NCBI RefSeq assembly: GCF_003334315.1
Contig: NZ_QOWR01000093.1
Length of the DNA: 5,652 bases
Reading direction: 5' to 3' (one strand)
DNA from: Escherichia coli
GTDB taxonomy: Bacteria; Pseudomonadota; Gammaproteobacteria; Enterobacterales; Enterobacteriaceae
In this document: positions 205 through 375 of the stretch, piece by piece
How the letters are laid out: each line of letters begins with the position of its first letter
How positions within the stretch are numbered: the stretch's first letter is position 1
The notes under the pieces: model-generated
Database searches by the model: none
The model's input: only the letters and a program-made list of their open reading frames with translations
What the model was told of the DNA's origin: nothing
Program-made: the position numbers and the translations under genes

Positions 205-375
205 CACGACCAGGTTTTGCCCCACATTCACGGCGGGCGCAAGGTTTACATAAACATTGGCGCTGCCACCGCCAATAGGGATAGCGGTACCATTGGCGGT
301 TTTACAGGCGAATGACCAGGCATTTACCGACCAGCCCATCAGCAGTACAGCAAACAGGGTAATAACTCGTTTCAT
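205..375 (-). pseudogene. fimH: fimH (type 1 fimbrial mannose-binding adhesin), 5' fragment of 57 codons, interrupted by IS1
   Basis: ATG at 375..373, then MKRVITLFAVLLMGWSVNAWS (signal peptide) and FACKTANGTAIPIGGGSANVYVNLAPAVNVGQNLVV (start of the mature lectin domain). After codon 57 the frame reads GDAANLLI-stop, which is encoded by the IS1 inverted repeat. Full-length FimH is about 300 aa; the rest must lie beyond the IS1 or be deleted. Confidence 0.88.

Follow-up and report, generated by a model that had tools for sequence, protein, structure and literature searches.

Alanine 27 in an IS1-disrupted fimH stub of Escherichia coli and what it says about lineage

Can a single residue of a disrupted fimH gene disclose the lineage from which the gene came? 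This question is raised by a stretch of Escherichia coli DNA of 5,652 nucleotides (referred to here as the window), in which a fimH reading frame runs into an IS1 end after 57 codons and for which a reading made from the sequence alone had proposed that the alanine at mature position 27 of the residual FimH might hint at the lineage of the disrupted allele. Our analysis leads us to view the window, with high confidence, as part of an E. coli type 1 fimbrial operon in decay: IS1 follows codon 57 of fimH, the Ala27 of the stub is a neutral relic in the ancestral, consensus state, and the operon carries two additional lesions, fimA::IS186 and a nonsense mutation in fimG (W3*). The feature itself is an ordinary IS-disrupted pseudogene with a consensus residue, a kind already known, and its overall importance is small.

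Identity and numbering of the fimH stub

All long open reading frames of the window are located on the minus strand and correspond to the genes for type 1 fimbriae, arranged as usual (fimA'-I-C-D-F-G-H'). In a megablast comparison with 5426 complete E. coli genomes, the segment from position 205 to 5577 was found at 99.2-99.9% identity, and the features under the match were fimH, fimG, fimF, fimD, fimC, fimI and fimA. Since multi-copy insertion sequences form both of its ends, the window has the look of a short-read contig, and it probably is such a contig ending in repeats. An Rfam scan of the window detected no RNA family at threshold. The features of the window are as follows.

1..204, minus strand: IS1 left end, with the terminal inverted repeat GGTGATGCTGCC... 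and the 5' part of insA; 99.5% identity to annotated IS1 copies
178..375, minus strand: fusion ORF of 65 amino acids, consisting of 57 FimH codons, 8 IS1-end codons and a stop (from the translation)
205..375, minus strand: fimH codons 1-57, i.e., signal peptide residues 1-21 and mature residues 1-36 (PDB FimH match, E=2e-31; PF09160)
232..234, minus strand: codon GCC, Ala at mature position 27 (GTC, Val, in K-12 MG1655)
395..898, minus strand: fimG with TAG at codon 3, the rest intact (translation MK*RKRGY...; codon at 890-892, SNP at 891)
911..1441, minus strand: fimF, full length, 1 amino acid difference to K-12
1451..4087, minus strand: fimD (usher), full length, 878 amino acids, 2 amino acid differences to K-12
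4154..4879, minus strand: fimC (chaperone), full length, 241 amino acids, 2 amino acid differences to K-12
4916..5455, minus strand: fimI, full length, 179 amino acids, 1 amino acid difference to K-12
5520..5577, minus strand: 3' remnant of fimA, the last 18 codons and the stop (by comparison with K-12)
5578..5652, no strand assigned: IS186/IS421 end (CATAAGCGCTAACTTAAGGGTTG...) at fimA GGGG(TTGCGG)CCCC; the window ends inside the element

Exactly 57 fimH codons are present at positions 205-375 (minus strand), and their translation, MKRVITLFAVLLMGWSVNAWSFACKTANGTAIPIGGGSANVYVNLAPAVNVGQNLVV, starts with MKRV and ends with NLVV. Translation of the minus strand across positions 178-384 yields MIVMKRVITLFAVLLMGWSVNAWSFACKTANGTAIPIGGGSANVYVNLAPAVNVGQNLVVGDAANLLI, followed by a stop codon; the last eight residues of the fusion ORF (GDAANLLI) and the stop are IS1 terminal repeat sequence and not part of fimH. 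A 68-amino-acid ORF starting from an upstream ATG (MIVMKRV...) was considered as well and was discarded; it is absent from the records, in which the 65-amino-acid version beginning at the true fimH start is found.

A search of solved structures aligned residues 1-57 of the stub with the full-length FimH precursor 5mts_A (E=2e-31), and residue 48 (A versus V) was the sole mismatch. In mature FimH chains that start with FACKTANG (4xoc_A, 1uwf_A, 3jwn_H), residues 1-36 correspond to residues 22-57 of the query, which are identical to residues 1-36 of 4xoc_A. Because the structure alignments pair residues 22-57 with mature residues 1-36, the signal peptide comprises 21 residues and the alanine at precursor position 48, encoded by the GCC codon at 232-234 (minus strand), is mature residue 27, precisely as the sequence-only reading had it. 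Judged by its sequence, the stub is FimH, the match being far above chance. The Pfam family PF09160 (FimH_man-bind) is on record for the identical 65-amino-acid product, and the stub is positioned directly downstream of fimG, where fimH is the last gene of fimAICDFGH; this order is the one annotated in the operons of K-12 and of strain 13C1065T.

The two-domain FimH protein (lectin domain, residues ~1-158; pilin domain, residues ~160-279) is incomplete here, and mature residues 1-36 alone precede the IS1 end. With 36 of the 279 mature residues retained, nearly all mannose-pocket residues and the entire pilin domain are absent, and the stub is a gene fragment (pseudogene) that is non-functional as a member of the FimH family. 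The earlier statement that residue 27 has no functional consequence in this setting is therefore upheld; since the residue sits in a dead 36-residue stub, the allosteric and affinity effects of A27V are inapplicable.

Residue 27 and the lineage signal

Position 27 had been described as a polymorphic and positively selected site of FimH, and this agrees with an in silico analysis of 287 strains in which positions 27, 62, and 163 were under positive selection (PMC5302871). In that work, the A27/S62/V163 combination was present in 169 of 254 urine isolates and in 28 of 33 isolates from healthy faeces (PMC5302871). Ala27 is the consensus state of FimH, and it occurs in non-AIEC and faecal isolates as well (PMC3554634; PMC5302871). 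One study, represented here by its citation in PMC3554634, made the case for V27A as a pathoadaptive change in paediatric Crohn's isolates. The A27/V27 polymorphism studied by the Sokurenko, Hultgren, and Darfeuille-Michaud groups concerns the same gene, the same residue and the same alleles (GCC, Ala; GTC, Val) as those considered here.

We counted the two alleles with a pair of 55-nt megablast queries that differ at their central base alone, using the 5426 complete E. coli genomes as the target; the polymorphic base falls inside every 28-mer seed of each query, so that a match requires the given allele. The Ala27 (GCC) word was present in 4001 genomes and the Val27 (GTC) word in 934, which together account for 4935 of the 4960 genomes with the fragment. 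The share of Ala27 among the typed complete genomes is ~81%, in a non-random collection whose many K-12 and B laboratory derivatives inflate Val27, if anything. Carriers of Ala27 include bovine, porcine, avian, human, and environmental strains, ETEC among them, and the stub has this consensus residue in common with UTI89 and most natural variants. Val27 is carried by MG1655 and BL21(DE3) and by clinical isolates with large genomes; because it occurs in both of these settings, the site reads as homoplasic, with Val27 as the derived state.

For the 171-nt stub as a whole, 1836 genomes are at least 99% identical and nearly all of the 4960 carriers at least 98%. Complete identity was seen in the first 6 of 40 rows of an evenly spaced sample of the ranking, which corresponds to ~620-745 genomes; a bovine 5.7-Mb strain, a porcine ETEC and NCTC9100 are included among them. 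As a test for lineage discrimination, the residue-27 state consequently failed, with Ala as the consensus and the majority state. The proposal that Ala27 hints at the lineage of the disrupted allele is not sustained, and the allele turned out to be uninformative in this respect, an outcome that the sequence-only reading had itself named as one that would speak against it. Ala27 says almost nothing on lineage, and the whole 171-nt stub is weakly informative. The fimH typing region usually covers nucleotides ~64-552; the 171 nt of the stub represent just part of it, and the stub is therefore untypeable.

If Ala27 were pathoadaptive or lineage-diagnostic, the disrupted gene would have come from a pathogenic (UPEC- or AIEC-like) lineage. 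The place of position 27 among the three positively selected FimH sites (PMC5302871) and the argument made for the paediatric Crohn's isolates (in the study cited in PMC3554634) lend themselves to this explanation, which we nevertheless regard as highly improbable: the residue is shared by about four-fifths of the typed genomes, from cattle, pigs, humans, ETEC and others, it is the consensus also found in non-AIEC and faecal isolates, and the alternative state, Val27, is homoplasic across K-12/BL21 and large-genome clinical isolates. Furthermore, the nearest full haplotypes belong to isolates from chicken stool, waterfowl manure, and humans with small genomes of 4.6-4.7 Mb. The Ala27 of the stub is instead a neutral relic of the parent allele in its ancestral, consensus form and no marker of pathotype or lineage. 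FimH residue 27 thus calls for caution when lineage or pathotype is to be deduced from it, since Ala is the default.

The lineage signal resides outside residue 27, in the 5.4-kb fim haplotype and in the IS junctions. The 5373-nt fim segment differs by three substitutions from strain 13C1065T (chicken stool, Hong Kong); its identity is 99.9% to strains L6-21, 2017.11.01CC, and LR-27, 99.3% to L73 and 99.2% to K-12. The intact FimH of 13C1065T equals K-12 FimH with V27A and A202V, which makes it the consensus form plus one further change. From the small genomes and the similarity to K-12, one might guess that the nearest relatives belong to phylogroup A. Our literature search found no paper that mentions the draft accessions or strain 13C1065T. 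In the closest relatives (L011, L012, L001, and L014-L016; comparison loci are given by L numbers), uxuA follows directly after fimH, without the intervening gntP of K-12, and this fimH-uxuA adjacency is a possible additional haplotype marker.

The IS1 load and the decay of the fim genes had raised a Shigella or EIEC origin, and this was rejected; the catalogue of Bravo et al. (2015; PMC4374849) contains no matching lesion, and the identical product is labelled E. coli at NCBI. The fim clusters of Shigella and EIEC likewise carry insertions of IS1 and other IS elements together with nonsense mutations, several independent lesions per operon. The lesions recorded there are fimD::IS1 at codon 221, fimI::IS1 at codon 35, fimH::IS629 at codon 264, fimB Q162*, and fimD Q563* (PMC4374849), whereas none of these is present in the window, which has its own set (fimH::IS1 at codon 57, fimA::IS186, fimG W3*) and in which fimD, fimC, fimF, and fimI are intact.

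The IS1 junction in fimH

IS1 is oriented like fimH, and the window begins inside the element. Positions 1-204 are 99.5% identical, over 204 nt, to IS1 family transposase copies in L001, L002, L011, and L012, and the matches of this IS1 end across E. coli genomes number in the tens of thousands. Window position 160 is an A, while the IS1 copies in L001, L002, L004, L009-L012, and L018 have a C; in the sense of IS1 the change (GTTTTTTAGG versus GTTTTTGAGG) lies just upstream of insA, and it is common to the window and L005. It may be a copy-specific SNP.

The left junction present in the window reads ...AAAACC|TGGTCGTG|GGTGATGCTGCC. A reciprocal right junction is found in L015:1-130, L016:1-100, and L018:700-770, where the IS1 IRR (...GGAGTCATTACC) is followed by TGGTCGTG and GATCTT... 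and then by fimH codons 58-300; at the point of joining, the right end of IS1, the duplication and fimH read ...AAGTTGGAGTCATTACC|TGGTCGTG|GATCTT. A simple insertion would give the right-junction sequence GGAGTCATTACCTGGTCGTGGATCTTTCG, made up of the IS1 IRR, the 8-bp duplication and fimH from codon 58 onward. The matching far-side ORF, which we constructed for comparison with the records, opens with GTG at codon 57 and then runs through codons 58-300 of the 13C1065T allele. It contains the 243 fimH codons that the stub lacks, in the allele of the nearest intact relative, and is on record in nine contigs. The 8 bp of TGGTCGTG are duplicated, since they are present at both the left and the right IS1 junction, and duplications of 8 or 9 bp are documented for IS1 (PMC5009759); the window holds one IS1 end alone, and the target duplication is known from the related assemblies L015, L016, and L018. 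Reciprocal junctions of this kind are typical of IS1 having entered by simple insertion, here between codon 57 and codon 58, and on this sequence evidence fimH::IS1 is a simple insertion in at least some assemblies.

The sequence-only reading had called the gene truncated. The window merely ends within IS1, however, and "interrupted" is probably the more accurate term. True truncation would have resulted if an IS1-mediated deletion had taken away the 3' part of fimH, perhaps along with flanking DNA. The window halts inside IS1 with nothing visible beyond it, PMC4374849 reports IS1-bounded fim deletions from Shigella, EIEC, and E. coli relatives, and in 13C1065T IS1 takes the place of fimB-nanC, but several assemblies possess the complementary IRR junction, the 8-bp TGGTCGTG duplication and the 243 fimH codons of the same allele, and we therefore hold a deletion to be unlikely. 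A simple IS1 insertion is the probable state of this particular genome as well, with the proviso that the left-junction contigs listed belong to other sample accessions than the right-junction ones and that the window ends inside both IS elements. The fimH gene is dead either way, because any 3' part is devoid of a signal peptide.

No fewer than 11 public contigs, drawn from NCBI, Logan, and ENA assemblies, carry the exact 65-amino-acid fusion product, which NCBI lists as OWD49590.1, "hypothetical protein [Escherichia coli]." Two of the loci are 100% identical to the window, namely L005 (GCA_002190225.1, LYBE01000574.1; over 5441 nt) and L007 (SRR3951468). Among the 5426 complete E. coli genomes, none has the same fimH/IS1 junction. 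Three complete-genome rows with full coverage (14EC033, CUWW06, and DFK.1) represent joined pieces; 14EC033 (L002), the one inspected of the three, has IS1 elsewhere in fimH. The insertion in E. coli 14EC033 (L002:1717-3396) is a different one at approximately codon 123, so that IS1 disruption of fimH recurs at other sites in other strains; CUWW06, an equivalent match, probably has a fimH IS1 insertion like that of 14EC033.

Insertion sequences present in many copies, such as those at both ends of the window, are error-prone for assemblers, and this, together with the lack of the junction in the 5426 complete genomes, could be taken to mean that a contig was mis-extended into a repeat and that the junction is an assembly artefact. 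We give this almost no credence, since two NCBI drafts, at least five assemblies of Logan runs and two ENA metagenome assemblies arrived independently at the same junction and fusion ORF, and since the reciprocal right junction with its target-site duplication exists. Two metagenome contigs with the identical junction differ from the window: L009 has two substitutions at the equivalents of window positions 289 and 307, both synonymous and inside the 171-nt stub, and L010 has two substitutions in fimG at the equivalents of 644 and 782. These differences could stem from separate insertion events into one and the same bond, from recombination or from plain divergence. It is conceivable, though rather doubtful in our judgment, that the bond after fimH codon 57 is a recurrent IS1 target, or that a single insertion allele was spread by recombination, and that it marks a natural E. 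coli lineage that is losing its type 1 fimbriae step by step (first fimH::IS1, then fimA::IS186, and then fimG W3*).

Additional lesions and a probable order of decay

The TGG to TAG change at codon 3 of fimG is private to the window, L005, and L007; position 891 is a C in every other locus examined, and a 55-nt word centred on the TAG variant was found in none of the 5426 complete E. coli genomes. We had suspected from the 147-amino-acid RefSeq fimG that 13C1065T also carries the nonsense codon, but this short product reflects the choice of start site during annotation, and MG1655 is annotated likewise. The RefSeq protein in question (WP_077897989.1, "fimbrial protein") starts at Ile21 without a signal peptide and is assigned to L013:9190-9633 (MG1655), L011:2692-3135, and L001:3192-3635; an annotation oddity of this kind can mask N-terminal lesions such as W3*. 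The genes fimF, fimD, fimC, and fimI contain no internal stops. A synonymous change at codon 90 of fimC (window position 4610) is again private to the window, L005, and L007.

At the other end of the window (5561-5652), the IS186 terminus (CATAAGCGC...) abuts the GGGG(N6)CCCC target, with the junction at 5577/5578. The uninterrupted fimA site of K-12 is GGGG TTGCGG CCCC, the reverse complement of the published GGGG(CCGCAA)CCCC, which is located at K-12 coordinate 4,541,627 and at which mutation-accumulation lines acquired IS186 on 16 independent occasions (Lee et al., 2016; PMC5009759). The same fimA hotspot was also struck repeatedly when amoxicillin resistance was evolved in the laboratory (Hoeksema et al., 2018; PMC6307192). 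The junction in the window thus falls exactly into this motif, on the opposite strand. While the published reports concern laboratory K-12 lines, the window and 12-14 complete natural genomes are wild isolates: 12 complete genomes share the fimA/IS186 junction at 100% identity and two more at 99.2%, O111:H8 strains and L73 included. Because the backgrounds of these genomes are unlike each other, independent IS186 hits are likely. In L73, an IS421 transposase is annotated beside the junction, and the insertion is a simple one, with duplicated GGTTGCGGCC on both sides and the remaining part of fimA beyond. The laboratory-defined fimA IS186 hotspot is hence used in natural isolates too.

Related assemblies carry these lesions in graded combinations. 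L003, a 39.6-kb contig, has fimH::IS1 with fimA and fimG intact; fimB, for which no gene is listed there and which we had at first taken to be missing, is present by tblastn. In L004 and L006, fimH::IS1 is accompanied by the IS186 end in fimA, while TGG is retained in fimG, and all three lesions are found together in the window, L005, and L007. This series (L003, then L004/L006, then the window, L005, and L007) is consistent with stepwise decay after a first inactivating hit. In the course of events that we envisage, IS1 would have inserted into fimH right after codon 57 (mature Val36), leaving a 5' stub that reads into the IS1 terminal repeat and stops after eight foreign codons; IS186 would have entered the GGGG(N6)CCCC hotspot in fimA, with 18 codons left to the end of the gene, and the TGG to TAG change would have arisen at codon 3 of fimG, the lesions presumably accumulating step by step under relaxed selection once the first hit had occurred. 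The strain is not expected to make functional type 1 fimbriae, given that the stub is devoid of most mannose-pocket residues and of the pilin domain and that the 3' part of the gene has no signal peptide. For epidemiology, the useful markers at this locus lie in the IS junctions and in the private nonsense mutation of fimG, which delimit a small clade of E. coli drafts with stepwise loss of type 1 fimbriae.

The same Ala27 fimH allele is present in L014:1919-2090 and L017:1820-1991 with a CAA to TAA change at mature Gln32 (Q32*), which splits fimH into a 52-amino-acid and a 244-amino-acid ORF. This independent inactivation of the same allele may hint at selection against fimbriation in some niche.
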